Shown: positions 29,838-48,845, counted from the stretch's first letter. The stretch is 64,000 nt of DNA from Alphaproteobacteria bacterium (GCA_965238305.1 CBDEHK010000001.1:3034226-3098225); one strand, 5' to 3'. Program-made: numbers and translations. Notes: a model not told the origin generated them from the letters alone.

Positions 29838-29972
29838 GAAATTCCAACCTTACCAACGATTGTGGCCTCGATATTGCAAACCTTTTTACAGTCCAGATAA
29901 CAGCCAATGGAGCTTCGGCGTGTTATATTTCGGTTTGCACAAGACTACAATCGTTGTGATTGGGTTAATGAT

Positions 29973-30317
29973 ATGTTTCGTATTGTAAGTTTGATTTTTG
30001 TATCAGCCTGTTTGTTCGCGACGAGCGGATGCGTTCGCGTGGGCGACAATATGGAAGTCATTGGCGAAAATATGACTGGTGGCGACTGCGACTGGTCGCG
30101 TTATGTCGAAGGTAAGAATTTTTGCCGGCATGAAAAACCGACGGCCATCGCCTACGAACCGTTATATTGCTACAAAAGTGTTGGCGCGGTTGATTGCTAT
30201 AATCAACCGCAACCTGGTCGTCGTTTGGTCGGGCAAAACAAAATACCAAATGATATGGTCGCTAAATCAGCAGATAATTCTGACAAAATGGCTAAATCGC
30301 AAAACTCGACGGAGTAG
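29973..30317 (+). CDS. Cys-rich lipoprotein of unknown function
   Basis: Lipobox FATSGC and six further Cys. Contains repeat copy A just after the lipobox. Confidence 0.5.
   Translation: MFRIVSLIFVSACLFATSGCVRVGDNMEVIGENMTGGDCDWSRYVEGKNFCRHEKPTAIAYEPLYCYKSVGAVDCYNQPQPGRRLVGQNKIPNDMVAKSADNSDKMAKSQNSTE
30036..30071 (+). repeat. 36-bp imperfect direct repeat, copy A
   Basis: cgcgtgggcgacaatatggaagtcattggcgaaaat. 33/36 identical to 34663-34698. Confidence 0.85.
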
Positions 30318-30426
30318 GGTTGGTATTAGGTATCGAGATCAACATCCGCGTTCTAATCAGGGATGAACCTTGGGCCCGACTTGATCGATAGGTAACAGAT
30401 TGTACCGGACACGTGGGTAGGCGCCG

Positions 30427-31875
30427 TCAGGCCACGACAGCCGACGGTGTTTTGTTTCCAGCAAGGTTACAGCGGGCATTCCAGCTATGGTTCCATGCCT
30501 CGAGATCCTTGGCGGGAACCGGTTTCGAGATATAATAACCTTGCGCATGATTGCAGCCGAGATCGGCCAAAGTTGCCCAATCTTCATGGCTTTCAATCCC
30601 TTCCGCCACAACTGTCAAATCCAGTTTGTGAGCAAGATCGATCATTGAACGGACAATGGCCAGATCCTCTTTGTGAATATACATTTTGGCGACAAAAGAC
30701 CGGTCGATCTTCATTTCCTGCAAGGGCAGATCGCTCAGGTAGGCAAGCGAGGAATAGCCGGTGCCGAAATCATCGATCGAAATTGCCACGCCCAGCGCCG
30801 CCAGCTGATTCAACGCCCGTACCGAGGCCTCTGGGTCGGCCATTAACGCAGTCTCGGTCACTTCGAACACCAAATACTCTGACAATTGGCGCCATTCGCT
30901 TAAAAATTCGATAATATCGTCCACGAGCGCCGGGTCATGCAGACTTCGCGGTGACAAGTTGACGGCGACCGCGTGCTTTATTCCGCTGGCCTGCCATAAC
31001 ATGATCTGCCGAACCGCCATGGCTACAGTTTTTCTGGTAAACGGCATGATCAACGAACTACTCTCGGCCAGCGGAATGAAATCGTCCGGCATGATTAAGC
31101 CTTTTTCAGGATGGCGCCAGCGAACCAGCGCCTCAAGGCCGCTGACATTCAATGTATTCATGTCAATCTTTGGTTGATAATAAAACTCCAACTGATCTTG
31201 CTTGACCGCATTTCTCAGATCGCTCGCGAAGAAATGCGGTCTTTGTGGAATAACACCATCTTGTGTGTCGTCATGGAAGCGAAAGCCACCGCCTCGTCGC
31301 TTGGCCTGGTACATTGCCCGGTCGGCCTTGCCGAGCAAAGTGACGAGATCGTCACCGTCATCGGGATACTGCGCCACCCCTATACTGGCTCCCACATCGA
31401 CTAACTGTTCTCCAAATTGGATTGGTAGCTGGACAACTTCAACAAGCTCCTGGGCAACTCTCGAAGCGTTTGGTATTCGACTTTCCAACGGTAGGACAAA
31501 GGCAAATTCGTCGCCGCCCATGCGCGCAACAGTGTCCGAGCTTCGTAGGCGTTGTTTGATACGTTTCGCGACGGTTTGCAGCACCTTGTCACCGGCTTCA
31601 TGTCCTAAGGTGTCATTAATCTCCTTGAACCGGTTTAGATCCATCAGCAAGATGAGAAGCGGTTGCTTTTTGCGATACGCCGCCTCGCGGGCCAGCTCGA
31701 AACGGTCCTGGTAGAGAGTTCGATTGGCCAAGCCGGTCAAGTCATCGTACAGGCTCAAACGCTCTAGCCCCTCGTTGGCGATAGTCAGCTCGTTCGTCAA
31801 CTCAGTGACACTGCGGTAGGTCTCCGCGAGTTCGGCTTCCAGTGCGGCGATTTTGGCGGATTGATCCGGCATCAT
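30427..31875 (-). CDS. GGDEF-EAL domain protein with N-terminal coiled coil
   Basis: RMGGDEFAF (GGDEF) followed by an EAL domain (EALVRW...). 4-nt overlap with the upstream PP2C gene. Confidence 0.9.
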   Translation of the reverse strand: MMPDQSAKIAALEAELAETYRSVTELTNELTIANEGLERLSLYDDLTGLANRTLYQDRFELAREAAYRKKQPLLILLMDLNRFKEINDTLGHEAGDKVLQTVAKRIKQRLRSSDTVARMGGDEFAFVLPLESRIPNASRVAQELVEVVQLPIQFGEQLVDVGASIGVAQYPDDGDDLVTLLGKADRAMYQAKRRGGGFRFHDDTQDGVIPQRPHFFASDLRNAVKQDQLEFYYQPKIDMNTLNVSGLEALVRWRHPEKGLIMPDDFIPLAESSSLIMPFTRKTVAMAVRQIMLWQASGIKHAVAVNLSPRSLHDPALVDDIIEFLSEWRQLSEYLVFEVTETALMADPEASVRALNQLAALGVAISIDDFGTGYSSLAYLSDLPLQEMKIDRSFVAKMYIHKEDLAIVRSMIDLAHKLDLTVVAEGIESHEDWATLADLGCNHAQGYYISKPVPAKDLEAWNHSWNARCNLAGNKTPSAVVA

Positions 31876-32899
31876 AACGTCTCCGTCGCGACGACAACTG
31901 TGGCGTCGTCATTGCTTTTGGCGAAATTGCGCATCAAGTAATGGCCGATCGAAGTGGGGCTCTCGACGTCATCGGGAGACTGCTCACGCAGATCCCACTG
32001 GCCCGTGATGCCATCGGTGTAGATCAATAGGGTGCCGCCTTCGGGCCAAACACTTTCGTTCACACGAAGTTTGGGCAAGGACCCCATGCCCAATACGCCT
32101 GGTCGGGTCATCAGTTGCGAACCGCCGACTGGGTATACGCGGGCCGCAACGTTACCGACCCCGACGTGGATCAGGCGGCGTTCAGGGACGGACACCCACA
32201 CCAGGGTGGCGGCGGCGCCTCGGGTGCCGCGCAGAACCTGGTGAAGGTCGCGGATAAGGTCCTCAGGATTTTTTTCCGGTTTGCCCGAATGTGCTCCATC
32301 GCGGCATCGCTGGCCCGCGCTGCCTCGGGACCGTGGCCCAAGCCATCTGCGACCGCGACCAATAGGCCGGCTTGATCTTCGTAAACGAAATAACCATCAC
32401 CGTTGGATTTTTCCCCAATGTAAGGGCGGGAATTGGCGCTGTATACAAAGCGTGCCGTTGTGCAATCGCGGCGCGTCCATTTTCTAACCGTAATGGAGGT
32501 TCCGACGTCCAAGGTCTCGTCTCCGGTTTGGCCATTCGCGACGCAAGAGCGGATTTCGAATTCGTCCATCAACCGCCGAACGGCGCCGAGCCCGCAACCG
32601 GTTGACCCTTGGCTTGACCAGTGATCGTTCAGCGCGGCCTGCAGATCGGCAATACCCGGACCTCTGTCTCTGGACGAAATTTCAATTCCGACGGTGATGT
32701 CGCTGTTACAATCGGAAACTGTAATTTCTCCGTCGACGGTTCGGTGACGCACCAAGTTCGTGGCTAGTTCCGTCGCCGCTGTCGCAGCTTCCGCCACCGC
32801 TTGGTCGTTCAATCCCGTGCCAAGCGCAATCCGCCGAACTTCGCGGCGGACATGGCCGACGTCTCCATCGGTGCGTACGGGTATTACGACGCCAACCAT
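31872..32899 (-). pseudogene. RsbT-like GHKL Ser kinase domain fused to PP2C (RsbX/RsbU-like) phosphatase, interrupted by a 1-nt frameshift
   Basis: The N-terminus has TELATNLV, DRGPGIAD and GCGLGAVRRLMDEF (RsbT/RsbW-like). The PP2C motifs VAVADGLGHG ... RGAAATLV ... VGVGNV ... IYTDGI are split between two frames. The frames converge at the T7 tract 32269-32275 (A7 on the coding strand). Confidence 0.75.
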
Positions 32900-33279
32900 T
32901 TTACGATTTCTACCCGTGTGCCTTCGCCGATCACCGATTCGATCTGGAAGTCGTCGCTTAACCGCCGGGCGCCGGGCAACCCCTGGCCCAGGCTATTGGC
33001 AGTGCTGTAGCCTTCGCCCATCGCCCGTTCGATATCCGGGATGCCCGGGCCCTGATCGGTGAAGATGCAACGCACGCCGCACCTGTCATCGCCATTGACT
33101 GGGACGACTTGCATTTCGCCGCCGCCGCCATGAACCAAGGTGTTGCGGGCCAGTTCGCTGACTGCCGTGGCGACCCGGGTCTTGTCGATCATCGAGAACG
33201 CCAGATCGGCCGCAACCTCGCGGGCGACGCTGCGTGCGCGAACGATGTCGTCCTCGCCCCTTATTTCAATCAGCTGCAT
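32884..33279 (-). CDS. rsbT: stressosome Ser/Thr kinase RsbT homolog
   Basis: Near-collinear with B. subtilis RsbT: SELARN, DQGPGIPD, GYSTANSLGQGLPGARRL, GEGT. Confidence 0.9.
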   Translation of the reverse strand: MQLIEIRGEDDIVRARSVAREVAADLAFSMIDKTRVATAVSELARNTLVHGGGGEMQVVPVNGDDRCGVRCIFTDQGPGIPDIERAMGEGYSTANSLGQGLPGARRLSDDFQIESVIGEGTRVEIVKWLAS

Positions 33280-33700
33280 CCAATTGATCCTGCGATTGTA
33301 GAATATTATCATGGCCGTTTGGCGGCGCTTCCGGCGTCGTCCTTTCTAACCGGTACCCCAGCGATTCGAGACCCAATTCCAGGGTTTGACAGGTATTGAT
33401 GTCAGGCAGGCCCAGCCCCATTTCGATCATCGTAATCGCCACCACCGGCTGCATGCCGACCAGGCTCACCTCGGTGTTCATCAACTTTGCCATACAGGCG
33501 GTCTCGGTGAGCACGCGGCCGATGTAGGAATCGACTAGCTCCAGGCTAGATATGTCTATCAATAAGGCGTTCGCATCGTGTTCCTGGATGCACTGCAGGA
33601 TAAGTTCCTGCAGCGCCGTCGCGACCCGGTCGTTCAGCTCCTGCTGGATCGAGACCAGAAGAAGGTCTCCGATCCTGAGTACGGGTATCTCGGACATCAT
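33266..33700 (-). CDS. rsbS: STAS-domain protein RsbS homolog
   Basis: Single STAS domain, 144 aa. 4-nt overlap with rsbR. Confidence 0.8.
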   Translation of the reverse strand: MMSEIPVLRIGDLLLVSIQQELNDRVATALQELILQCIQEHDANALLIDISSLELVDSYIGRVLTETACMAKLMNTEVSLVGMQPVVAITMIEMGLGLPDINTCQTLELGLESLGYRLERTTPEAPPNGHDNILQSQDQLDAAD

Positions 33701-34590
33701 GCGGCTCGCGATATGCCGTCAACCAATTCTATGGCGAGCTTTAGGCCTTCTTGCAGTGTGCTGCGAGTTTCCAAGGTTGAAAGATCCAGTCCGAGATTGA
33801 CGATCGCGACAGCTGTGGCGGGGGAGATGCCGGTCAGAATGCATTTGCCCCCCATCAGCACGATGGAAGACGCCATCGAAATCAGGTGGTTCGCGACCAT
33901 AGTGTCCATTACCGGAACACCTGTAATATCGATGATAATGACCCGGGCATTTTCTTTGCTTAGACGTTGTAGCGTTCTTTCGGTGCAGTTTTGCATGCGC
34001 CGGCTGTCTAGCGTGCCAATCAGTGGCAACACCAGCACGCCCTGCCATACGGCGATGGCAGGGGTGGAGAGCTCTTCAACTTCTTGCGCCTTGCGCTCGA
34101 TCTCCGCCTTGATCTGCTTGATCACCGTCAGATCACGCATGATGGCGGTCAATATGCGCCGCCCCTGCACATGAAACTCTCTGATACCGATTTCGAGAGG
34201 GATCAACGTGCCATCCCTGTGCAGCCCATTGATCTCTCGCCAACTGGCCCGATCACCGGTGGCATCGGCTTCGGGATGGTCCGCCGCATTTTTGTCCTGT
34301 ATGAGTTTCGGGACGTCGGGCACCAGCTTCTCGAAGTTCAGTTCGGCGGCCTCCTCTTTCGAATAATCGAACAGCTTTTCCGCGGCCTGGTTGAAAAGTT
34401 CCACGCCGCCCTGGTCATCGAAAGCGATCATCGCATCGGCTGAAAACTCGATCAGTTCATTGTAATATTCCGTTGACCATTGCGCTGATGTGACCGGCGT
34501 TTTGGCAGAACCGTTGCCCCGTGCCTGCACAGTGTCTTGTACTTGGTTGCTCATCGTGAAAAACCTCTGTGACATGCTTTGTATTTGCAA
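33697..34590 (-). CDS. rsbR: RsbR-like stressosome sensor (N-terminal PAS-like domain plus C-terminal STAS)
   Basis: The C-terminal STAS domain has a conserved Thr-rich region. The N-terminal half resembles a PAS fold. Confidence 0.8.
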   Translation of the reverse strand: MQIQSMSQRFFTMSNQVQDTVQARGNGSAKTPVTSAQWSTEYYNELIEFSADAMIAFDDQGGVELFNQAAEKLFDYSKEEAAELNFEKLVPDVPKLIQDKNAADHPEADATGDRASWREINGLHRDGTLIPLEIGIREFHVQGRRILTAIMRDLTVIKQIKAEIERKAQEVEELSTPAIAVWQGVLVLPLIGTLDSRRMQNCTERTLQRLSKENARVIIIDITGVPVMDTMVANHLISMASSIVLMGGKCILTGISPATAVAIVNLGLDLSTLETRSTLQEGLKLAIELVDGISRAA

Positions 34591-34801: not shown

Positions 34802-34878
34802 TGGCGACCCCTGCAGGACTTGAACCTGCGACCTCAAGATTAGAAATCTCGCGCTCTATCCAGCTGAGCTAAGGGGCC
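34802..34878 (-). tRNA. tRNA-Arg (TCT)
   Basis: 77-nt cloverleaf with anticodon loop UUUCUAA. Similar to E. coli argU. Confidence 0.9.
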
Positions 34879-34947: not shown

Positions 34948-35274
34948 TTAAGGGCGCGGAAGCGGATCGGTGCCGGGACCTCTAACCGAAGTCGGGGCAA
35001 AATTATCCGCGTATGTTTTTACCCGAAACTTACGTTGGCGCGGCAATTTGACCAGATATGAAATGTCATTGCGTTCGCAGTAAGCTACGGCTTCTTCTTC
35101 TGTTTCAAAGCGCATTCGTAGCTGCTGGTTGGTATCTTCGGAGCCGGTCCAACCCATCAACGGTTCGACGTGACGTGGTGATGACTGTTCGAATTCCAAC
35201 ACCCATTTTTTCGAATTGCCGTGGCCGGACTGCATCGTCGATTTAGCCGGTTGGAAAATTATTGCATTACGCAC
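34948..35274 (-). CDS. ETC complex I subunit (NDUFS4-like) conserved-region protein
   Basis: IFQPAKSTMQSGHG...WVLEFE signature of the bacterial NDUFS4-like family. Confidence 0.75.
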   Translation of the reverse strand: MRNAIIFQPAKSTMQSGHGNSKKWVLEFEQSSPRHVEPLMGWTGSEDTNQQLRMRFETEEEAVAYCERNDISYLVKLPRQRKFRVKTYADNFAPTSVRGPGTDPLPRP

Positions 35275-38406: not shown

Positions 38407-39225
38407 TTACGCAAAGACAATATCGCCAATCAGGAATGATCCAGCTGCCAAATCTTTCAGCAAGATATTGCCGTCTTCGCCAGCGGAAATAAGAATTCCG
38501 TCAGCGACATCGCTGACGACCACATCACTGGCGGTCAGTCCAACAAGGACAATACTGTCATTGCCATCGCCATAGTCGGTTACTTCGTCGGGGCCGCCAC
38601 CCTGTCCGAATATGAACATGTCATTGCCGCTGCCGCCGGTCAGAACATCGCCGCCATTGTTACCGTAAATGTAATCGTCGCCGGCGCCACCATCTATCGT
38701 ATCAACACCTTGTCCACCAAATATCGTGTCCGCGCCGTCGCCGCCGGATAACATGTCGGTACCCTGATTTCCGTATATCAAATCAGCGCCTGTCCCGCTG
38801 CCGCCATCGATTTGGTCGCTTCCCATATTACCGTACAGCACGTCATTGCCGATGCCACCATCGATGTCGTCATCGCTCTGGCCACCATAGACGGTATCAT
38901 TTCCGCTTTCGCCAAACAGCAAATCGTCTTTTTGATTACCGTAGATGATATCCGCATCGGCGCCGCCATATATTGTATCGACATCCATATTGCCATAAAG
39001 GACATCTTCGCCGGTATCACCGTAGATCAGATCGCTCTGCTGTCCGCCATAGATCCAATCGTTGCCATCGCCGCCATACATCAGGTCTTCACCTTGATTG
39101 CCATAGACAATGTCGGCCCCGGCCAGCGCCGAAATCGTATCGTCACCTTGGAAGCCATAAATGGAATCGTCCCCTGTGGTCCCAACCAACGGATCCGGAT
39201 TCTTAGTACCTTCAACAAGTGCCAT
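38407..39225 (-). CDS. hemolysin-type calcium-binding (RTX) repeat protein
   Basis: More than 20 GGxGxDxUx nonapeptide repeats. No N-terminal signal peptide. Confidence 0.85.
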
Positions 39226-39768: not shown

Positions 39769-40236
39769 CTAGTTTTGCGCCTTAGCGTCCTGAACGACGC
39801 GATCGCCAACACGGATCGCCAGGGTTTTCGAAAGGCCGCCGTTGATTTCGAGAACCATCTTTATCGGCATGCCTGGGCCTATTTCTTGGAGCGAATGAGG
39901 TGTTGCGTTGTGATGAATATATTCAATTTTTCCAGATTTATCTAAGAACAGAATATCCAATGGTATCAGAGTATTCCGCATCCAAAATTGAACTAATTGG
40001 GCATTGGGATAAACAAACAACATCCCCTGATCAAACGGCAATTCTCGCCGATGCATCAGACCAATTTCCCTGCTTTTTGATGTCGCTGCAATCTCGACAA
40101 AAAATGGTATCTCCGCCTTGGAAGTCGCTACCACGATTTTCCGTAAATCGCGTGCAAAGACATTTCCGCTGACAAAGACGAAAACTGCAAAAAACAAAAT
40201 GAAAGGTAATTGTTTACCTGGCTTAGTCACTGATTT
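39769..40236 (-). CDS. DUF192 (COG1430) protein with signal peptide
   Basis: Probable GTG start giving a signal peptide. C-terminal DUF192 core. Confidence 0.6.
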   Translation of the reverse strand, partial: KSVTKPGKQLPFILFFAVFVFVSGNVFARDLRKIVVATSKAEIPFFVEIAATSKSREIGLMHRRELPFDQGMLFVYPNAQLVQFWMRNTLIPLDILFLDKSGKIEYIHHNATPHSLQEIGPGMPIKMVLEINGGLSKTLAIRVGDRVVQDAKAQN

Positions 40237-40744
40237 CTGCGACCAAGGGTCCTTTGGATCCGCGACCGACGCGAATGCGAATTTCCTGACCTGGTTCCAA
40301 ATCATCTAGGCCAAAACGACGCAAGGTTTCAATATGGATGAAAATATCCTGACTGCCCTCGCCCTCAGTTACAAAACCATAACCCTTGGTCCGGTTGAAC
40401 CACTTCACCGTAACGTCAAGGGTATCGCCTTCCGCCTCGACCGCCGTGAAATTCGCATTACTACTGGGACGAGGTTCAGAACTTGGTTTGATAGCGGTGG
40501 AGATATCCAATTCGATTATCCGCTGTGCCTGAAGACCGCGGTCCCGTTTGACCGCTTCACAAACCACTGTTGTTCCTTCATGAACAAGCTGAACACCCGC
40601 TTCTCGCAAAACGGTTTTGTGTAGCAAAACGTCTCCTGCATCGGTTACGATAAAACCGTAACCTTTCACAGAATCGAACCATTTTACCGGACCACGTGCA
40701 ATAACGCCTTCTTCCGGATCTTCGTCTACTGATTCCATACTCAT
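40223..40744 (-). CDS. cold-shock protein with two cold-shock domains
   Basis: Two copies of VKWF(D/N)xxKGYGF(I/V). GGAAG RBS before the ATG at 40744. Confidence 0.85.
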   Translation of the reverse strand: MSMESVDEDPEEGVIARGPVKWFDSVKGYGFIVTDAGDVLLHKTVLREAGVQLVHEGTTVVCEAVKRDRGLQAQRIIELDISTAIKPSSEPRPSSNANFTAVEAEGDTLDVTVKWFNRTKGYGFVTEGEGSQDIFIHIETLRRFGLDDLEPGQEIRIRVGRGSKGPLVAEISD

Positions 40745-40931
40745 CGGGCTTCCAACTAACCTGCCGAAAAGAAACCTTAGCACGAATCACCAATTCTGGC
40801 CAAGTGAGGAATGCTAACAAACGTCTATAAGCCACTCAGATACTTTAATAATATTGAGGACTAGCAATATTATGCGCCGCTGATTAGTCTGGCGCCCAAT
40901 TAGCAGCCTATTTAGACCACAGTTTAAGGGG

Positions 40932-42140: not shown

Positions 42141-42722
42141 ATGTTCATACAGTTCATCATAAATATAACCCTTTTGGCATTTATGGGCGCTACGGCAATC
42201 GCAATTCTGCGGGTACGCAACTTATTCGCCGTTGCCATGTTGTCCGGAATTTACAGCTTCCTGGCGGCAACTGTGTTTGTGTTATTAGATGCCGTCGATG
42301 TCGCCTTTACAGAAGCAGCCGTTGGTGCGGGCGTGTCGACAGTATTGATGTTAGGTGCATTGTCTCTCATCGGCGAAAATCGTGAAAAAGTATCCATCCA
42401 TACACCGATATTGCCCTTAATCGTGGTGACTATAACCGGCGTTGCGTTGCTTTATGGGGTTAGCGACATGCCCGCCTTCGCCGATCCGGAGGCCCCAGCG
42501 AATAAACATGTCGCGCCTTATTATTTGGAAGAAAGTAAAAAAGAAATCGGTGTTCCCAATGTGGTGACGTCTATTCTGTCGAGTTATAGAGGCTACGATA
42601 CGTTGGGTGAGACAGGGGTCATATTTACCGCCGGTATCGCTGTCATGTCGTTGCTGGGCGGAACTTTTTGGCGACGCCGGCGACCACGTAAAAAGGAAGA
42701 TCCAACTGGAGACGGAGGATGA
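42141..42722 (+). CDS. MbhD/MbhE-like (DUF4040 / MrpA C-terminal-like) membrane subunit
   Basis: TM protein with a VVTSILSSYRGYDTLGE region resembling MrpA-C/MbhD-E. Confidence 0.55.
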   Translation: MFIQFIINITLLAFMGATAIAILRVRNLFAVAMLSGIYSFLAATVFVLLDAVDVAFTEAAVGAGVSTVLMLGALSLIGENREKVSIHTPILPLIVVTITGVALLYGVSDMPAFADPEAPANKHVAPYYLEESKKEIGVPNVVTSILSSYRGYDTLGETGVIFTAGIAVMSLLGGTFWRRRRPRKKEDPTGDGG

Positions 42723-43156
42723 AGCATCATCGTGTCCTTCGCATCGTTTCAAAGTTTCTTATCCCGTTGATCATGATTTTTGGGCTGTATGTGCAGTTTC
42801 ATGGAGATTATGGACCTGGTGGCGGCTTCCAAGCTGGCGTGATATTTGCGGCCGGCATCATCCTCTATGCGCTTGTATTCGGACTGGATCATGCCATGAA
42901 AGTGGTCCCGCCCCGCATTATTACCAAGTTTGTCGCACTTGGATTGTTGTTGTACACCGGCGTCGGCATTGCCGGGATGCTGCTGGGCGGGGAGTTCTTG
43001 AATTACTCGGTTCTGGGCGCGACCCAACAAAGTGGTCAGCACCTTGGCATTTTATTGATCGAACTTGGCGTTGGCACCACAGTTGCCGCGACGATCACCA
43101 CGATATTCTATTATTTTGCTGGCTATCGCGGTTTGGGCGACGAGGATCAGCCATGA
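42719..43156 (+). CDS. mrpB: Mrp/Mnh antiporter subunit B
   Basis: GGGFQAGVI signature. 4-nt overlap with the upstream gene. Confidence 0.8.
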   Translation: MKHHRVLRIVSKFLIPLIMIFGLYVQFHGDYGPGGGFQAGVIFAAGIILYALVFGLDHAMKVVPPRIITKFVALGLLLYTGVGIAGMLLGGEFLNYSVLGATQQSGQHLGILLIELGVGTTVAATITTIFYYFAGYRGLGDEDQP

Positions 43157-43509
43157 ATTTGATCATCGCTCACTATAATTACTGGATCGTGATCCTGCTG
43201 ATGATGCTCGGTTTTTATATCGTCATCGCACAAGGTAATCTGATTAAGAAACTGATTGGTTTGAACCTCTTCCAAACCTCTGTCTTTCTGCTTTATATTT
43301 CTATCTCGAAAGTTGAAGGCGGAACCGCGCCGATTTTTGACGATCGTTTCAACGTCTTTTCCAACCCCCTGCCCCACGTTTTGATCCTAACGGCAATCGT
43401 TGTCGGTGTCGCAACCATGGCGGTCGGCCTCGCGTTGATTATACGCATTCGCGATGCCTATGGCACGATCGAGGAAGATGAGATCAATCGACAGGATGAT
43501 ACCCCATGA
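43153..43509 (+). CDS. mrpC: Mrp antiporter subunit C (NuoK-like)
   Basis: 118 aa with 3 TM helices and NuoK/MrpC conserved acidic positions. ATGA overlap with mrpB. Confidence 0.8.
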   Translation: MNLIIAHYNYWIVILLMMLGFYIVIAQGNLIKKLIGLNLFQTSVFLLYISISKVEGGTAPIFDDRFNVFSNPLPHVLILTAIVVGVATMAVGLALIIRIRDAYGTIEEDEINRQDDTP

Positions 43510-44987
43510 TTGTCGATAATCTTCCTGCCATATTGATCATTCTGCCGCTGCTGGGGGCGCCGGTTTGCTTGTTATTAGGGCGCGGTGATTGGTCTTGGGG
43601 GCTCAGCCTGATCGTGACCTGGCTTTCATTTGCGGTCGCCATCGCGCTTTTAATTATCGTCTGGAACGGCGAAGTGATCGAATATCCATTGGGTGGATGG
43701 TCGGCCCCATGGGGCATCGTTTACCGGCTGGACCCGGCGAACGCATTCGTCCTCCTTATCGTCTCCGCTATCAGTGCAATACTACTACCTTACTGTTGGC
43801 GCAGTGTGCAGCGGGAAGTACCGGAAAATCGGCAACATCTATTTTATTCGCTCTATCTACTGTGCCAGACCGGTCTCATGGGTATCGCCATCACCGGCGA
43901 CGCATTTAACGTTTTTGTATTCTTGGAAATTTCCTCACTCTCAAGTTATGCCTTGATTGCACTCGGCAGTCATCGCAAGGCCCTGACGTCCGCTTTCACT
44001 TATCTGATTATGGGGACGATTGGCGCCACCTTCATCCTGATTGGCATTGGCTTGATCTACATGATGACCGGCACCCTTAACATGACTGATATGCATGACA
44101 AGATGGCAGCTATTGGGGAGAAAGCACCAATAATGGCGGCCTTTGCATTCATTACCGTTGGTGTGGTGCTGAAACTTGCGCTCTTCCCACTGCATCTATG
44201 GATGCCTAACGCCTATGCTTATGCGCCAAGTGCGGTCTCTGCCTTTATCGCAGCGACGGCAACTAAAGTGTCGATCTATGTGCTGCTGCGGTTCGTCTTT
44301 ACGGTGTTTGGTCAGGATTTGGCTTTCGGGGCCGCGCCCCTCAATTATGTCCTGATGGTGCCAGCGATCATTGCTATGTTTGCCGGCTCTTTGGTGGCGA
44401 TCTTTCAGACCGACATCAAACGCATGTTAGCTTATTCCAGTGTGGCGCAAATTGGTTACATCGTCCTCGCCATCAGTTTAGTCAGTCTCGGCGGCATAAC
44501 GGCCAGTTTCCTGCATATCTTCAATCACGCTTTGATGAAAGCTGCCTTATTTGGCGTTATGGGTTGCATATTTTTTCGCCTATCGTCGGTGCGATTAAAC
44601 GACATGGCTGGTTTGGCGAAAGAAATGCCGTTGACCTTCGCCTGTTTCCTAATTGGTGGGATGAGTTTAATCGGCGTGCCGCTAACCGGTGGATTTATTT
44701 CAAAATTCTATCTTATCAAAGCAACTTTGGAACTTGATTTTTGGTGGCTTAGCTTCTTGATCCTAGCCTCCAGTTTGCTCGCAGTCATCTATATCTGGCG
44801 CATTGTTGAAGTGATGTATTTCAAACCGGCCCCTGAAGGCCGGGTGCCAGTGAAAGAAGCGCCACTATCAATGCTGATCCCGACCATTATCCTGGCGGCG
44901 GCAAATATTTATTTTGGAATCGAGACTAGCTTGCCCATAGGCGTATCGGAAGCGGCAGCTAAAGCATTGTTAGGAGGGGCATGGTGA
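43506..44987 (+). CDS. mrpD: Mrp antiporter subunit D (NuoN/M-like antiporter-like subunit)
   Basis: Proton_antipo_M fold (LHLWMPNAYA...). Confidence 0.85.
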   Translation: MIVDNLPAILIILPLLGAPVCLLLGRGDWSWGLSLIVTWLSFAVAIALLIIVWNGEVIEYPLGGWSAPWGIVYRLDPANAFVLLIVSAISAILLPYCWRSVQREVPENRQHLFYSLYLLCQTGLMGIAITGDAFNVFVFLEISSLSSYALIALGSHRKALTSAFTYLIMGTIGATFILIGIGLIYMMTGTLNMTDMHDKMAAIGEKAPIMAAFAFITVGVVLKLALFPLHLWMPNAYAYAPSAVSAFIAATATKVSIYVLLRFVFTVFGQDLAFGAAPLNYVLMVPAIIAMFAGSLVAIFQTDIKRMLAYSSVAQIGYIVLAISLVSLGGITASFLHIFNHALMKAALFGVMGCIFFRLSSVRLNDMAGLAKEMPLTFACFLIGGMSLIGVPLTGGFISKFYLIKATLELDFWWLSFLILASSLLAVIYIWRIVEVMYFKPAPEGRVPVKEAPLSMLIPTIILAAANIYFGIETSLPIGVSEAAAKALLGGAW

Positions 44988-46450
44988 ATAGCGCGATCCT
45001 CATGCTCTGGGCGATTGCCATACCGTTGATTGCAGCGGTCATTATTCCGCTTTTCCACGAACATCCTAATCGCCGTGAAGGCGTTACTTTGATTGCAACG
45101 GCGATCTTATTTGCAGTCGTTTTGGTGTTGATAACCGGCGATAACCGGTTTGAGTTCGCCCGCATAGAACTTATTGAGCCGATCCCCAATATTGCCATCG
45201 CTTTCCGTTTGGAACCATTGGGGGCGATTTTTGCCGCTGTCGCGTCATTATTATGGATCGTCAGTTCATTGTTCGGGATCGGTTATATGCGCGGCAATAA
45301 TGAGCCGCGACAGACCCGTTTTTACATTGCATTTGCGATCGCCATCGGCAGCACCATGGGCATTTGTTTTGCCGGCAATCTGCTGACTTTGTTCATCTTC
45401 TACGAAGCGCTGACGATTTCGACTTATCCTCTGGTTGCCCATCACAAGAACGATGAAGCGGTTAAGTCCGGCCGTACCTATCTCGGCATTTTGATGGGCA
45501 CATCAATTGGGTTTTTGCTGTTCGCGATAGTTATCACTTATGTCGAAACCGGGACGTTGGATTTTGTCGACGGCGGCATCTTGTCCGGACGGGTGACGCC
45601 GTTCACAGGAAGTGTGCTGTTGTTGTTATTCATGTACGGCGTCGGTAAAGCTGCCTTGATGCCGCTCCACAGATGGTTGCCGGCGGCGATGGTCGCGCCG
45701 ACCCCAGTGAGCGCACTTTTGCATGCCGTTGCGGTCGTGAAAGCGGGTGTTTTCTCCGTCGTGAAAATTGCCGTCTATGTCTTTGGCGTCGATTATCTAC
45801 GCGAACTTTCAGCTTCTTCGATCATTCTTTATGCCGCTGGTTTCACTATTATTATCGCTTCCATTGTTGCGCTTCGTCAGGACAATTTGAAACGACGCTT
45901 GGCCTATTCGACGATCAGTCAGCTTTCCTATGTCATTTTGGCCATGTTCATCCTGACGCCGATGTCGACAACTGGCGCGGCGTTACATATTGCTGTCCAC
46001 GCCTTCGGCAAAATCACCCTTTTTATGGCAGCCGGCGCGATCTATACAGCAGCCCACAAAACTCTGGTCAGTCAGTTGGACGGAATTGGTAAACGTATGC
46101 CTTGGACGATGACGGCCTTTGCCGTCGGATCCCTTTCGATGATCGGCGTGCCGCCGGCTGCGGGATTTCTGAGTAAATGGTATATGTTGCTCGGCGCGTT
46201 AGAGAGCGAACAGATTTTCGCTATTGGCGTCATCGTGATTTCGACATTGCTGAATGCGGGATATTTTCTACCGGTCGTTTATGCTGCATTTTTGAAACCG
46301 GAAAAGATCGATAGCAATCATCCCGTGGAACATGGCGAAGCGCCAATATTTATTGTCATCGCCCTAACCGCAACCGCGATCCTTACAGTCTTACTGTTTC
46401 TGTTCCCTGGATTTGTCTTGGAACTGGCAAAAAATGTCGCCGGGGGGTAG
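44981..46450 (+). CDS. second MrpD/NuoM-like antiporter-like subunit
   Basis: LHRWLPAAMVAPTPVSALLHAVAVVKAGVF is a NuoM/MrpD hallmark. Confidence 0.85.
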   Translation: MVNSAILMLWAIAIPLIAAVIIPLFHEHPNRREGVTLIATAILFAVVLVLITGDNRFEFARIELIEPIPNIAIAFRLEPLGAIFAAVASLLWIVSSLFGIGYMRGNNEPRQTRFYIAFAIAIGSTMGICFAGNLLTLFIFYEALTISTYPLVAHHKNDEAVKSGRTYLGILMGTSIGFLLFAIVITYVETGTLDFVDGGILSGRVTPFTGSVLLLLFMYGVGKAALMPLHRWLPAAMVAPTPVSALLHAVAVVKAGVFSVVKIAVYVFGVDYLRELSASSIILYAAGFTIIIASIVALRQDNLKRRLAYSTISQLSYVILAMFILTPMSTTGAALHIAVHAFGKITLFMAAGAIYTAAHKTLVSQLDGIGKRMPWTMTAFAVGSLSMIGVPPAAGFLSKWYMLLGALESEQIFAIGVIVISTLLNAGYFLPVVYAAFLKPEKIDSNHPVEHGEAPIFIVIALTATAILTVLLFLFPGFVLELAKNVAGG

Positions 46451-46461
46451 AGGATATAGTC

Positions 46462-46728
46462 ATGTCAGATAACTCGTTGCATGAAGACAAACACTGGCTT
46501 ATCCGCCCACAAATCATCAGGTTATTGTGGCGAATTGGCCTATTTGTATTATTGCTTACCGTCCTCGCTGCCCTGACATATGAAGCGCATCCCTATTTCG
46601 GCTACGATGGCTGGTTCGCCTTTTATGCAACTTTCGGCTTTTTTTCCTGCGTGGGCATGGTGTTTTTCGCTAAATTCCTAGCTGTCTTTTTGAAACGCCC
46701 AGACGACTATTACGAGAAGGATCAATAA
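46462..46728 (+). CDS. small two-TM membrane protein of unknown function
   Basis: 88 aa, positioned between the large antiporter-like genes. Confidence 0.4.
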   Translation: MSDNSLHEDKHWLIRPQIIRLLWRIGLFVLLLTVLAALTYEAHPYFGYDGWFAFYATFGFFSCVGMVFFAKFLAVFLKRPDDYYEKDQ

Positions 46729-46731
46729 GCG

Positions 46732-48411
46732 ATGCCGATCCCTCCCGCACTCATTATGTTCCTGGGCGCATTGATCATCGCTTTGTTGCGCGGGCCCCAG
46801 CGCAGTATCGTGGCGATGATTATCCCGATCCTGACACTGGCGACCATTTGGACCGTGCCGGATGGGGAAGTCATCAGTTTCACCTTCCTGGAGTATATTA
46901 TTGTCCCCTTGGAAGGGGATAAATTGTCGCGGTTGTTTGCCAGTATTTTCTCCCTCATGGCCTTCGCCGGTGCAATGTTCGCAGCAAAACAAAAAGAGCG
47001 GATGGAATTGCCAGCGGCGTTTGTCTATTCCGGGGCCGCGATCGGGGTCAGTTTAGCGGGCGATCTGATCACGATGTTCGTCTTTTGGGAGATTATGGCA
47101 GTCGCCTCGACGTTGGTGATCTGGTCGGCCCGTACCAAACAAGCCGAAAGCGCATCGTTGCGTTACGTCTTAATTCATCTGTTTGGTGGTGTGATCCTGA
47201 TGATCGGTGTTGTCGGGCAAGTGCTGGAAACAGGATCGACGGAATTTGGCGCCGTTCATCTGGAAAGTTTTTCTAGTTGGTGCATGCTGGTGGGTTTCCT
47301 GATCAATGCCGGCGCTCCGCCCTTCTCCGCTTGGCTTCCGGATGCTTATCCAGAAGCGTCCTTTTCTGGCATGGTGTTTCTATCCGCTTTTACGACAAAA
47401 ACCGCGGTTTATGTATTGATCCGAGCTTTTCCAGGCACGGAAGTCTTAATCCCCATCGGCGTCTTTATGATTTTCTATGGCATCATTTATGCGCTACTGG
47501 AAAATGATATGCGGCGAATATTGGCCTATTCCATTATCAATCAGGTCGGCTTCATGGTCACAGGAATTGGCATCGGCGGAGAGATGGCGCTGAATGGTGC
47601 GGCGGCCCATGCCTTTACCCACATAATATATAAAGCCTTGTTGTTGATGTCGGCGGGGTCGGTGATGATGATGACCGGCGGGGTGCGGAAATGTTCCAGT
47701 CTCGGTGGCTTATTTCAGTCCATGCCCTATACCGCAACAATGGGCATAATCGGGGCGTTGGCAATTTCCTCATTTCCTTTTACGTCCGGATTTGTGTCGA
47801 AGTCGATGATCACGCAGGGTGCGATTGATGCCCACATGATGTGGGTTTGGCTGGCTTTGGCCGCCGCATCAGCCGGTGTCTTCCTGCATGCGGGCATTAA
47901 ATTCCCCTGGTTTGTCTTCTTCCAGAAAGATTCCGGCTTGCGTCCGTCGGAGCCGCCGTGGAGCATGCGGATCGCCATGGGGCTATTTGCCTTTCTTTGC
48001 ATCGCCATAGGCGTTTACCCCGATCCCCTTTATGCATTGCTGCCTTATGCCGTAAATTACGTACCTTATACAGTTGGTCACGTGGTCGAGATGCTGCAGC
48101 TCTTATTATTCTCAGGCCTCGCCTTCTTCCTGTTTTTGCCATATATGAAGCGAACGTTGACACTTACCCTCGATTTGGACTGGTTTTATCGTCGTTTGTT
48201 CAAGAACCTCTTTAAGGATGCGGCGGCCCAGGCAGGTAAAGCTCATGCGACCTCCTGGACCGATGGTGAACTGCGGTTGAGGCAGTTGATTGCGCGAATA
48301 TCCCGCCATCACGGCGAACAGGGCATATTGGCCCGGACCTGGCCGACCGGCAGTATGGTGCTATGGGCGGCCGCATTATTAGGCGGCTATCTAATCCTTT
48401 ATTATCGGTGA
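46732..48411 (+). CDS. MrpA/NuoL-like antiporter-like subunit (short form)
   Basis: AWLPDAY motif. 559 aa, so it lacks a long MrpA C-terminal extension. Confidence 0.85.
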   Translation: MPIPPALIMFLGALIIALLRGPQRSIVAMIIPILTLATIWTVPDGEVISFTFLEYIIVPLEGDKLSRLFASIFSLMAFAGAMFAAKQKERMELPAAFVYSGAAIGVSLAGDLITMFVFWEIMAVASTLVIWSARTKQAESASLRYVLIHLFGGVILMIGVVGQVLETGSTEFGAVHLESFSSWCMLVGFLINAGAPPFSAWLPDAYPEASFSGMVFLSAFTTKTAVYVLIRAFPGTEVLIPIGVFMIFYGIIYALLENDMRRILAYSIINQVGFMVTGIGIGGEMALNGAAAHAFTHIIYKALLLMSAGSVMMMTGGVRKCSSLGGLFQSMPYTATMGIIGALAISSFPFTSGFVSKSMITQGAIDAHMMWVWLALAAASAGVFLHAGIKFPWFVFFQKDSGLRPSEPPWSMRIAMGLFAFLCIAIGVYPDPLYALLPYAVNYVPYTVGHVVEMLQLLLFSGLAFFLFLPYMKRTLTLTLDLDWFYRRLFKNLFKDAAAQAGKAHATSWTDGELRLRQLIARISRHHGEQGILARTWPTGSMVLWAAALLGGYLILYYR

Positions 48412-48845
48412 TGGTGTCGACAGTGGTCGCCTACCTGAATTTTCACATCTTTGCGGCGTTGCTGAATGGGTTGGCACTAGGTTCAATGATATTTTTCGCC
48501 GCCATCGTGACGCCAAGTGTTTTTAAGGCTTTGGAAGGCGAGCATCGAAGTCGTTATCTGGAAACAATATTTCCGCTCTATTTTCGCGCGATGGCCGGAT
48601 TGGAAGCTATTGCCGGGATATTGATTATCTATCGGATAGAAGGTTGGGCCTTGTTAGCCGTTGCCGCCGCATTCATGTTTTCCGACCAAGCCCTGCGGCC
48701 AACCATTAATCGGCTTCGCGCCGGCCATTATGCTGGCGATGCGGACACAAGTGTGCGATTTAAGAAGATGCACCGCCTCAGTGTGCTCATCAATCTGGCG
48801 CAAATTTTTATCTCTCTGATTGTTTTTTTCCGTTTAGCTGTCTAG
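48411..48845 (+). CDS. four-TM membrane protein (DUF4149-like), translationally coupled
   Basis: Its ATG overlaps the upstream TGA stop (tgATGg arrangement), so the two genes share 1 nt (48411). The 144-aa hydrophobic start is inferred inside listed ORF 48363-48845. Confidence 0.5.
   Translation: MVSTVVAYLNFHIFAALLNGLALGSMIFFAAIVTPSVFKALEGEHRSRYLETIFPLYFRAMAGLEAIAGILIIYRIEGWALLAVAAAFMFSDQALRPTINRLRAGHYAGDADTSVRFKKMHRLSVLINLAQIFISLIVFFRLAV

Follow-up and report, generated by a model that had tools for sequence, protein, structure and literature searches.

In B. subtilis, RsbR, RsbS and RsbT form part of an RsbR-RsbS-RsbT-RsbU-RsbV-RsbW-SigB-RsbX system whose output is transcriptional. An RsbW-like kinase and a PP2C domain occur in one protein of a STAS-based pathway in SypE of Vibrio fischeri and OsaC of Streptomyces coelicolor, and in SiaABCD a diguanylate cyclase with nothing but a helical stalk at its N terminus is governed by a PP2C phosphatase, a kinase and a partner-switch protein. 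In Moorella thermoacetica, an RsbR/S/T/X-type module (MtR-MtS-MtT-MtX) adjoins the c-di-GMP enzyme MtG without a sigma factor, and the stressosome controls a diguanylate cyclase according to Quin 2012 (Structure 20:350), in the form in which that work is cited in PMC12143880 and PMC4976288; MtG itself consists of RsbU_N, GAF and GGDEF domains (PMC12143880). In the Gram-negative rsbRSTX operons (Pane-Farre 2005; Heinz et al. 2022, PMC9237108; Vibrio), rsbR, rsbS, rsbT and a phosphatase gene are followed directly by a signalling output, recurrently a c-di-GMP enzyme or a histidine kinase and mostly without RsbU_N. Modules with c-di-GMP outputs are included in that survey (PMC9237108); the first-pass annotation had likewise mentioned alternative outputs for RsbRST modules. 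The locus described here is a variant of this known rsbRSTX-plus-output scheme and not a new kind.

The window, by which we mean the whole 64-kb stretch analysed, carries on the minus strand of positions 30427-34590 the series rsbR, rsbS, rsbT, a kinase-PP2C gene (K+P) and a GGDEF-EAL gene, with domains assigned by Pfam profile search (Table 1). The order, strand, coordinates, domains and overlaps first annotated for five co-directional genes all hold, and STAS, PAS, HATPase_c_2, SpoIIE, GGDEF and EAL were found by Pfam; five intact genes, however, are not present, because K+P is split into two ORFs and the cluster thus comprises six. Overlaps of 4 nt (ATGA) join rsbR to rsbS and K+P to GGDEF-EAL, rsbT and K+P overlap by 16 nt, and rsbS and rsbT by 14 nt, provided that rsbT starts at ATG 33279. 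Elsewhere in the window there is no further STAS, HATPase_c_2, PP2C, GGDEF or EAL ORF, nor any sigma-70-family ORF when searched with sigma-factor query sequences. The absence of sigma-B, RsbV and RsbW homologs that had been noted is borne out within these 64 kb of a 4.9-Mb genome, where RsbU, RsbV, RsbW and SigB were not found linked to the module. The window proteins found in the protein collection were all singleton clusters.

Table 1. Features of the rsbRST cluster, in order of transcription (positions counted from the first letter of the window)
Feature	Position	Strand	Basis and content
rsbR-like	33697..34590	-	PAS ~34126-34467 (N-terminal) and STAS ~33748-34056 (C-terminal); Pfam STAS 2.5e-16, PAS_9 1.7e-07
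rsbS-like	33266..33700	-	Single STAS domain; Pfam STAS 1.2e-10
rsbT-like GHKL serine kinase, directly after rsbS	32884..33312	-	Pfam HATPase_c, HATPase_c_2
K+P, 5' part	32171..32899	-	242-aa ORF; RsbT-like ATP-binding domain ~32483-32863 and first third of PP2C; HATPase_c_2 2.1e-12
A7 homopolymer (T7 on + strand), site of -1 shift in K+P frame	32269..32275	-	Translations in both frames and sequence
K+P, 3' part, -1 frame	31872..32268	-	Rest of RsbX-type PP2C; mechanical ORF 31872-32201 (109 aa); Pfam SpoIIE
GGDEF-EAL output, 482 aa	30427..31875	-	GGDEF ~31291-31752 (Pfam 6.9e-47); EAL ~30520-31221 (Pfam 5.5e-74)
Output N-terminal helix motif, aa 8-40, KIAALEAELAETYRSVTELTNELTIANEGLERL	31756..31854	-	AlphaFold model and conservation
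Invariant Thr19 codon in helix motif	31819-31821	-	Motif conservation

The first three genes have the features of a stressosome module, namely an RsbR with a sensor and a STAS domain, an RsbS consisting of a single STAS domain and an RsbT kinase encoded directly after it. The longest rsbR-like ORF starts at TTG 34590, and an AGAGG lies 9 nt 5' of ATG 34554, the likely start, which would give a protein of 285 aa, the length of the RsbR orthologue in a related locus (L001). The best solved relatives of its STAS part are RsbR chains, from V. vulnificus (7O0I, E 1.6e-27) and Listeria (6QCM), and the phospho-acceptor positions are retained in 'IGTLDS' and 'VMDT', aligned with the Listeria and Vibrio sites; we take these phosphorylatable Thr/Ser residues to be the equivalents of B. 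subtilis T171 and T205. The PAS domain matches the haem-PAS of BjFixL best (E 1.3e-12), with Gln at the position of the proximal His, and haem is a doubtful ligand. Among solved structures, RsbS is nearest to B. subtilis RsbS (6JHK, E 4.9e-27), Listeria RsbS (6QCM) and Moorella MtS (2VY9), and the Ser of its 'VDS' aligns to 'IDS' of B. subtilis RsbS, the conserved Ser presumably being the equivalent of S59. RsbT, which likely starts at ATG 33279 to give 131 aa, shares 47% identity with B. subtilis RsbT in a gapless alignment of 126 residues, in keeping with the near-collinearity first noticed; its best solved relative is SpoIIAB. The homology to the B. subtilis system covers RsbS, the STAS part of RsbR, RsbT and RsbX, together with the phospho-acceptor positions, but here the phosphatase gene directly follows rsbT and the output is enzymatic rather than transcriptional.

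The fourth gene encodes an RsbT-like kinase domain joined to an RsbX-type minimal PP2C domain. Both domains reside in one protein after repair of a frameshift, as they do in all intact homologues, although the fusion reported in the first annotation is not one intact ORF in the sequence. The kinase domain shares 31% identity with the RsbT of the window, and its ATP-binding motifs (E44, N48, D78xGPG, G101xG103) are invariant in alignments of 31 and 50 homologues. Moorella MtX (3ZT9, 8.4e-17) and B. subtilis RsbX (3W40, 2.7e-14) are the best solved relatives of the PP2C part, and a structure model of a K+P orthologue (P0002) gives a TM score of 0.92 to MtX (3ZT9) and 0.80 to SpoIIAB. The PP2C of the window is nearest to MtX in sequence, as the modelled PP2C of P0002 is in fold. 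MtX, however, is a single-domain PP2C, and the Gram-negative surveys likewise describe single-domain RsbX, with a globin sensor where this locus has PAS. The fusion was initially taken for a peculiarity of this locus; it is instead the usual fourth gene, with >6366 homologues, and it immediately follows rsbR-rsbS-rsbT in 63 of 80 sampled loci from many phyla. All full-coverage homologues among the matches listed contain both domains in ~320-360 aa. We found no paper on the K+P fusion. SypE and OsaC (cited in PMC3999984) resemble it in carrying a GHKL serine kinase and PP2C in one polypeptide of a STAS-based system, but SypE has a receiver between the domains and OsaC has PAS and GAF, whereas the window protein has neither and lies inside an rsbRST operon.

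In the fifth gene product, 41 residues forming one helix precede the GGDEF and EAL domains, and there is no sensor domain. The RxxD I-site (R111, D114), GGDEF (120-124) and EAL (248-250) are invariant among orthologues, as are N306, E338, E341, DDFG (368-371), K389, E425 and Q445 of the EAL domain, and both domains are therefore predicted to be catalytically complete with an intact I-site. The output thus resembles MtG in being a predictedly competent GGDEF enzyme, with intact GGDEF and RxxD, whose gene overlaps the K+P stop. It differs from MtG in having a helix, GGDEF and EAL in place of RsbU_N, GAF and GGDEF (PMC12143880), and the RsbU_N docking site gave no match (E <= 0.01). Of 70 other outputs, 8 carry RsbU_N, and most outputs sampled are histidine kinases (50-57 of 70). 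RsbU_N, employed in both Bacillus and Moorella, is the sole proven RsbT-binding domain, and an output without it counts against the mechanism set out below. The helix and GGDEF domain also align to SiaD of the Pseudomonas aeruginosa SiaABCD system (PMC7647112) by the NCBIfam model (E 1.4e-40, below the cut-off), a likeness that consists in this alignment; SiaC does not correspond to a classical RsbS/RsbR pair, and SiaABCD lacks both a stressosome-type scaffold and an EAL domain.

The AlphaFold model places residues 5-42 of the output in a single helix, and the N-terminal coiled coil originally proposed is a specific conserved helix, with RsbU_N absent. It carries the motif ELxETYRSVTELTNEL here and L..ELEETNRGVvAL..EL elsewhere, its Thr being invariant across the sampled loci apart from a Ser in one, and no Pfam family covers it. 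Among module-linked orthologues, the helix is conserved like the catalytic domains (66% vs 59% and 57%). In an orphan homologue (P0203), whose locus has no module within 7 kb upstream and ~4 kb downstream, the motif has decayed (33-39% vs 64-65%). With an HMM refined iteratively on the same, phylogenetically non-independent loci in which it was then counted, related motifs were found in 46 of 68 sampled K+P loci, only in the gene directly after K+P, and were absent (E <= 0.01) in the other 22; the 57 matches among 8665 ORFs all lie on the module strand and start 21-582 nt past the K+P stop. The motif is also present on kinases that occupy the output slot in two sister loci (L083, L085), and many other outputs have an N-terminal HATPase_c_2 of their own directly ahead of it. 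Searches started from the motif alone recovered module loci, two of them clear (L087, L093), two fragmented with RsbR-type genes upstream (L091, L092) and one with rsbT nearby (L090). The conserved helix is a candidate for signal transfer from such clusters.

These data bear on whether the GGDEF-EAL enzyme is the target of the module or a mere neighbour, regulated independently, for instance through its I-site or by other partners, while the true target lies elsewhere in the genome. The want of RsbU_N, the small share of the genome inspected and the prevalence of histidine kinase outputs would all suit such independence. We nevertheless regard it as quite improbable, given the translational coupling suggested by the ATGA overlap, the lack of a sensor in the enzyme itself, the motif shared with same-slot kinases and lost in the orphan copy, and the adjacency to K+P in at least five other loci (L001, L002, L082, L086 and L087), where the R-S-T-K+P-GGDEF/EAL order recurs with K+P proteins of 44-62% identity; L088 was merged with L086 in this count, since their search scores are identical. 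As a matter of comparative genomics, judged by gene order, coupling and a module-specific motif, the output first proposed, a c-di-GMP enzyme in place of a sigma factor, holds up.

We favor the view that this is probably an rsbR-rsbS-rsbT-rsbX (stressosome) type operon with a bifunctional c-di-GMP enzyme as its output, the steps being modelled on B. subtilis, Moorella and Vibrio. RsbR and RsbS would build a scaffold that holds RsbT, and a signal perceived through PAS would cause RsbT to phosphorylate RsbS and RsbR and to leave the scaffold. Either the released RsbT or the K+P kinase domain could then engage the N-terminal helix of the output, by docking or by phosphorylation of Thr19, which would shift the geometry of the GGDEF-EAL dimer and with it the balance of c-di-GMP synthesis and breakdown, until the PP2C domain resets the system. 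On these grounds of sequence and analogy we infer control of c-di-GMP by the module. More tentatively, and at somewhat less than even odds, the Thr-containing helix may be a previously undescribed receiver element through which RsbT-type kinase domains of K+P modules control outputs such as histidine kinases and GGDEF-EAL enzymes, by docking or Thr phosphorylation. We found no mention of a conserved output helix in the Gram-negative rsbRSTX survey literature, and, if real, such a receiver would explain how stressosomes signal to outputs without RsbU_N, a question left open by PMC9237108.

The same motif would also suit a partner switch, in which the K+P kinase domain and not RsbT holds the output helix as an anti-sigma factor would, fixing the enzyme in one state until dephosphorylated RsbS/RsbR competes and frees it, with PP2C setting STAS phosphorylation and RsbT only tuning the scaffold. 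The motif does keep company with the kinase domain, occurring in none of the six loci with single-domain RsbX, four of which have RsbU_N on the output, but these six are few and of related lineages, and two K+P loci (L003, L019) have outputs that carry RsbU_N all the same. The HATPase_c_2 directly before the motif in many outputs, the invariant ATP-binding motifs and SpoIIAB-like fold of the K domain and the precedent of SypE and OsaC, fused kinase-PP2C proteins acting on a STAS protein, point the same way; against this, RsbT is present in every locus and is closer to the proven effector-binding protein. We consider the partner switch unlikely.

Whether the PP2C step operates in this strain depends on the A7 run, where a -1 frameshift causes the 5' K+P ORF to stop prematurely and separates the DGLGHG from the TRGAA motif of the PP2C fold. 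Insertion of one A into the run restores a 342-aa K+P that is collinear with 30 intact homologues (~340 aa) and passes Pfam SpoIIE with the full length of the profile aligned (40.2 bits, positions 3-189 of 192). The shift might be bypassed by -1 ribosomal or transcriptional slippage giving some full-length K+P, with changes in run length perhaps acting as an on/off switch. The required shift falls on CGG AAA AAA A, a site that permits re-pairing of tRNA-Lys, and its product would be the repaired protein, but there is no stimulatory RNA structure 3' of the run (z = -0.77) and no perfect X XXY YYZ heptamer in frame, seven A's are short for efficient transcriptional slippage, and the aligned homologues have no Lys-Lys/A run here and are intact, so that nothing is conserved at the site. 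Such bypass is highly improbable.

Unless the frameshift is a sequencing error, the PP2C reset step is presumably lost in this strain, and the module may be non-functional here. That the lesion is real, leaving the RsbX-type phosphatase dead, the module locked with RsbT released or decaying, and the translational coupling of GGDEF-EAL weakened too, has in our estimate a little short of an even chance. The shift is present in the sequence and splits a domain that the K+P homologues among the matches listed retain; moreover, 11 other homopolymers of >=7 bases lie inside ORFs that are intact and the pairs tested included no second broken gene, so homopolymer errors do not abound in the assembly. 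An isolated miscall in a homopolymer is, however, a frequent fault of assemblies, and there is no further degeneration: the invariant catalytic residues of both K+P domains are all retained, and the lesion is therefore either very recent or an artefact.

Pfam searches on the minus strand bear out the domains that the first-pass annotation had read at this locus (PAS plus STAS, STAS, HATPase, PP2C, GGDEF and EAL), and its overlapping stops and starts also hold, with an ATGA common to the rsbR/rsbS and PP2C/GGDEF-EAL junctions and a 16-nt overlap between rsbT and the gene for the kinase-phosphatase fusion (K+P, an RsbT-like kinase domain joined to an RsbX-type PP2C). Between the module genes no terminator or promoter rises above chance. 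The likely start of rsbR is the ATG at 34554, as AGAGG lies 9 nt upstream and the resulting 285-aa product matches the orthologue at the homologous locus L001, whereas the longest frame is the one tabulated; rsbT likely starts at the ATG at 33279. The module as first observed is real, but what had been taken as five genes appears as six open reading frames between 30427 and 34590, and a frameshift in the kinase-PP2C gene had been missed.

Open reading frames of the module in transcription order, with their Pfam domains
Feature	Domains	Coordinates	Strand	Length (aa)	Source
rsbR	PAS + STAS	33697-34590	-	297	Pfam
rsbS	STAS	33266-33700	-	144	Pfam
rsbT	HATPase_c / HATPase_c_2	32884-33312	-	142	Pfam
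K+P, 5' frame	HATPase_c_2 + start of PP2C	32171-32899	-	242	Pfam
K+P, 3' frame	end of SpoIIE-type PP2C	31872-32201	-	109	Pfam
Output	GGDEF (E 6.9e-47) + EAL (E 5.5e-74)	30427-31875	-	482	Pfam

The two K+P frames are a single gene in which the reading frame changes by -1. Translation in frame 0 gives ...MEHIRANRKKILRTLS... up to its stop at 32171, and the -1 frame goes on ...NPEDLIRDLHQVLRGTRGAA... until the stop at 31872, the switch lying at an A7 run (CGG AAA AAA ATC, T7 at 32269-32275 on the plus strand). One extra A restores a 342-aa K+P with a full-profile Pfam SpoIIE match above threshold, and when aligned with 30 intact homologues the repaired protein keeps all invariant residues of both domains and introduces no gap at the junction, where the single gap column is due to a one-residue insertion in the homologue P0008. 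A programmed frameshift is unlikely, since no RNA structure stands out downstream of the A7 run (z = -0.77) and the corresponding site in the aligned K+P homologues holds no Lys-Lys/A run. Nor is the assembly generally error-prone at homopolymers, because the 11 other runs of at least 7 bases in the window all fall within intact reading frames and the overlapping pairs considered as further frameshifts (39769/40223, 42141/42607 and 46732/48363) were shown to be separate genes. The 242-aa and 109-aa products are each on record exactly, from one contig, and the window proteins traced in the database are all singleton clusters. The frame change is either a real recent mutation or a single miscall; the module in this strain may be defective, and a genuine frameshift would leave it without the reset step.

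The solved structures closest to RsbS are B. subtilis RsbS (6JHK, E 4.9e-27), Listeria RsbS and Moorella MtS, and the serine of its VDS motif aligns with the B. subtilis site. For the STAS half of RsbR they are RsbR chains from V. vulnificus (7O0I, E 1.6e-27) and Listeria, with both phospho-acceptor positions kept, as Ser and Thr. The RsbR PAS domain has the haem-PAS of Bradyrhizobium FixL as its nearest solved relative (E 1.3e-12); a Gln aligns with the FixL proximal His, which makes haem binding doubtful on sequence grounds, and we do not claim haem-based oxygen sensing. RsbT aligns without gaps to B. subtilis RsbT at 47% identity, the reference sequence serving as a lead that the strength of the match itself validates. 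The kinase domain of K+P is a paralogue of the window RsbT (31% identity) with ATP-binding motifs that are invariant in 31 and in 50 homologues, and its PP2C half is nearest by sequence to Moorella MtX (3ZT9) and B. subtilis RsbX (3W40). Folds were compared through the AlphaFold model of the orthologue P0002 (62% identical, pLDDT 90), in which the PP2C domain gives a TM score of 0.92 to 3ZT9 and 0.85 to 3W40, and the N-terminal domain 0.80 to SpoIIAB.

The first-pass interpretation was right in outline, except that the fusion, there singled out as a feature of this instance, is common rather than special, and the kind of system is already known. The repaired K+P has at least 6366 database homologues at E <= 1e-5, called ATP-binding SpoIIE family protein phosphatase in some sources; among the 120 homologues listed nearly all are 320-360 aa long with both domains, and the nearest come from alphaproteobacterial MAGs. 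A scan with one genome per species confirmed 466 loci; the 80 retained span Alphaproteobacteria, Acidobacteriota, Bacteroidota, Cyanobacteria, Actinomycetota, Bacillota, haloarchaea and others. Homologues of rsbR-rsbS-rsbT directly precede the fusion in 63 of these 80 loci; most of the others are truncated at a contig end, and in six loci the fusion slot holds a PP2C-only gene. The window module therefore belongs to a very large rsbRSTX subclass in which X carries an extra RsbT-like domain, and in other respects is a typical example of a known scheme. Published surveys of rsbRSTX modules describe a single-domain RsbX (PMC9237108), whereas here X is fused to a kinase domain. We found no discussion of the subclass in the literature and nothing specific on the fusion or on the helix motif of its outputs, of which an earlier description in Pane-Farre 2005 is possible.

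The genes directly downstream of the fusion (n = 70) include 50-57 histidine kinases and 2 GGDEF-EAL genes; receiver domains occur in 20 of the 70 and RsbU_N in 8. Among the closest relatives, L001, L082, L086, L002 and L087 each also have a GGDEF-EAL output, of 471-488 aa (L088 has search scores identical to those of L086 and was counted with it). The RxxD I-site, the GGDEF and EAL motifs and the other EAL catalytic residues are all invariant among the orthologues, and the output may possess both synthesis (GGDEF) and breakdown (EAL) activities. A stressosome-type module driving a c-di-GMP enzyme is already established in Moorella, and inference has extended such outputs to Vibrio, Chromobacterium and Herbaspirillum (PMC12143880, PMC4976288, PMC9237108).

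Stressosomes are widespread, and the route to their outputs is known only for Bacillus and Moorella; most outputs have no RsbU_N docking domain, and an RsbT-output interaction was looked for and not detected (Heinz et al. 2022, PMC9237108). The window output likewise has no RsbU_N. It has no sensor domain of its own either, and the lack of a sensor makes for a compact test case. Its residues 1-42 are predicted to form one helix leading into the GGDEF domain, and in the module-linked orthologues I9, L12, E13, E15, L16, E18, T19, Y20, R21, S22, L26, T27, N28 and L30 are near-invariant, with a mean pairwise identity of 66% over the helix, 59% over GGDEF and 57% over EAL. The helix has no Pfam family, giving only sub-threshold coiled-coil noise. 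An HMM built from five GGDEF-EAL N termini also matches kinases after the fusion, two in L085 and one each in L083 and L068, and others more weakly, the general form being L..EL[EA][ED]TN[RK]G[VL]xAL..EL. Iterated on the same loci, it gives 57 matches among 8665 stop-to-stop reading frames (1.3 million residues; 86 loci and the window), all on the module strand and starting 21-582 nt past the fusion stop, either at the extreme N terminus, as in the window, or behind a kinase's N-terminal HATPase_c_2. The motif is present in 46 of the 68 fusion loci whose downstream sequence is long enough and in none of the six PP2C-only loci, samples that are small and phylogenetically non-independent, with the HMM refined on the same loci; the output of a PP2C-only locus carries RsbU_N in four cases and is a separate kinase-domain gene in two. 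The threonine (Thr19 in the window) is the sole invariant residue in a 35-sequence alignment, outside which L021 has Ser at this position.

A metagenome scan with the helix alone returned four loci: L087 has a full module, L088 duplicates L086, L089 begins at the motif and so gives no information, and in L090 an rsbT and part of an rsbR are close by on the opposite strand. Searching proteins with the motif profile gave only fragments of at most 81 aa. Three on long contigs served as context checks, and each is preceded by RsbR-type genes: the order RsbR-RsbS-RsbT-K+P-motif-kinase is clean in L093, whereas the loci L091 and L092 are broken into fragments. The GGDEF-EAL protein P0203 (L094, 7001-8443) is 59% identical to the window protein overall and 64-65% in both catalytic domains, and has no STAS or kinase genes within 7 kb upstream and about 4 kb downstream. 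Its helix is 39% identical to that of the window protein (33% in its close relative P0204), with T19, Y20, R21, S22, T27 and N28 all replaced in an N terminus that is still coiled-coil. Small and phylogenetically non-independent as these samples also are, the motif evidence points one way and is consistent with a module-specific helix. A variant of the helix, LEAEL.[EQ]SH.NLGRL, in which Ser takes the place of the invariant Thr, occurs in the short GGDEF-EAL proteins P0227, P0235 and P0242 (460-487 aa), one of which comes from a MAG of the Rhodospirillaceae.

Alongside the observed domain content, catalytic and phospho-acceptor residues, gene coupling, synteny and module-specific helix, a course of signaling can be proposed. 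On the model of B. subtilis, Moorella and Vibrio, a scaffold of RsbR and RsbS would sequester RsbT, a cue sensed by the PAS domain would cause RsbS and RsbR to be phosphorylated and RsbT to be set free, and the PP2C would reset the system. The comparative pattern further suggests that an RsbT-type domain may act on the output helix, either docking on it or phosphorylating Thr19, and that this could alter the geometry of the GGDEF-EAL dimer. Such a step would be in line with the coiled-coil linker mechanism that has been described in RsbU and in GGDEF enzymes (PMC12143880) and agrees with the suggestion that RsbT may phosphorylate outputs that have no RsbU_N (PMC9237108). The main alternative, that the kinase domain of the fusion itself holds the helix in the manner of an anti-sigma factor, is favoured by the co-occurrence of motif and fusion; in favour of RsbT are its ubiquity and its similarity to the proven effector-binding protein. 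The hallmarks of the subclass are the second RsbT-like kinase domain on the reset phosphatase and outputs with a common short Thr-helix, and it is this conserved helix that we consider the most useful result, as it makes the hand-over of the signal testable.

In the sister loci L083 (6029-8545) and L085 (6056-10664) the GGDEF-EAL slot is filled by a histidine kinase that shares the ETY[RQ]S helix. A receiver-HD-GYP protein follows the kinase in L083, where the output is therefore likely still c-di-GMP; L085 has two helix-bearing kinases and three receiver proteins. Many output kinases, among them those of L008, L029, L047, L067, L074 and L075, have their own N-terminal HATPase_c_2 before HisKA, so that RsbT-like domains number three at these loci (in RsbT, in K+P and in the output itself), and in L074 the helix motif lies between HATPase_c_2 and HisKA.

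Elsewhere in the 64-kb window there is no other STAS, HATPase_c_2, PP2C, GGDEF or EAL reading frame; RpoE and SigB queries found no sigma-70-family frame in it, and its Rfam matches, with no c-di-GMP riboswitch, are five tRNAs only, including a tRNA-Arg(TCT) gene at 34802-34878 (-), ~210 nt upstream of rsbR. G+C is 0.54-0.63 from rsbR to K+P (31500-34500) versus about 0.47-0.53 in the flanks, and transposase genes adjoin related modules (of IS110 type in L001 and of DDE type in L085); horizontal mobility of the module is possible. An NDUFS4-family gene (complex I 18-kDa subunit-like) lies at 34948-35274 (-). Among bacteria the family is characteristic of Alphaproteobacteria, in agreement with the alphaproteobacterial origin of the module's nearest homologues. 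On the other side, a 590-bp gap (29838-30426) separates the GGDEF-EAL gene from an aminotransferase gene and holds a putative 136-aa reading frame (29907-30317, +) with no Pfam or NCBIfam match. Further off, 38407-39225 (-) encodes 272 aa that are almost all RTX calcium-binding nonapeptide repeats (10 stretches matched, E 2.8e-61), and 40223-40783 (-) encodes tandem cold-shock domains (2 CSD stretches matched) and adjoins a DUF192 gene. A run of membrane-subunit genes at 42141-48411 (+) resembles Mrp/Mnh-type cation:proton antiporters, with Pfam matches to MbhD/MbhE (42141-42722), NuoK-like Oxidored_q2 (42607-43509) and Proton_antipo_M (46732-48411), an assignment drawn from these three scanned stretches; two further frames lie between the last two of them (43506-46450), and a DUF4149 reading frame (48363-48845) follows.
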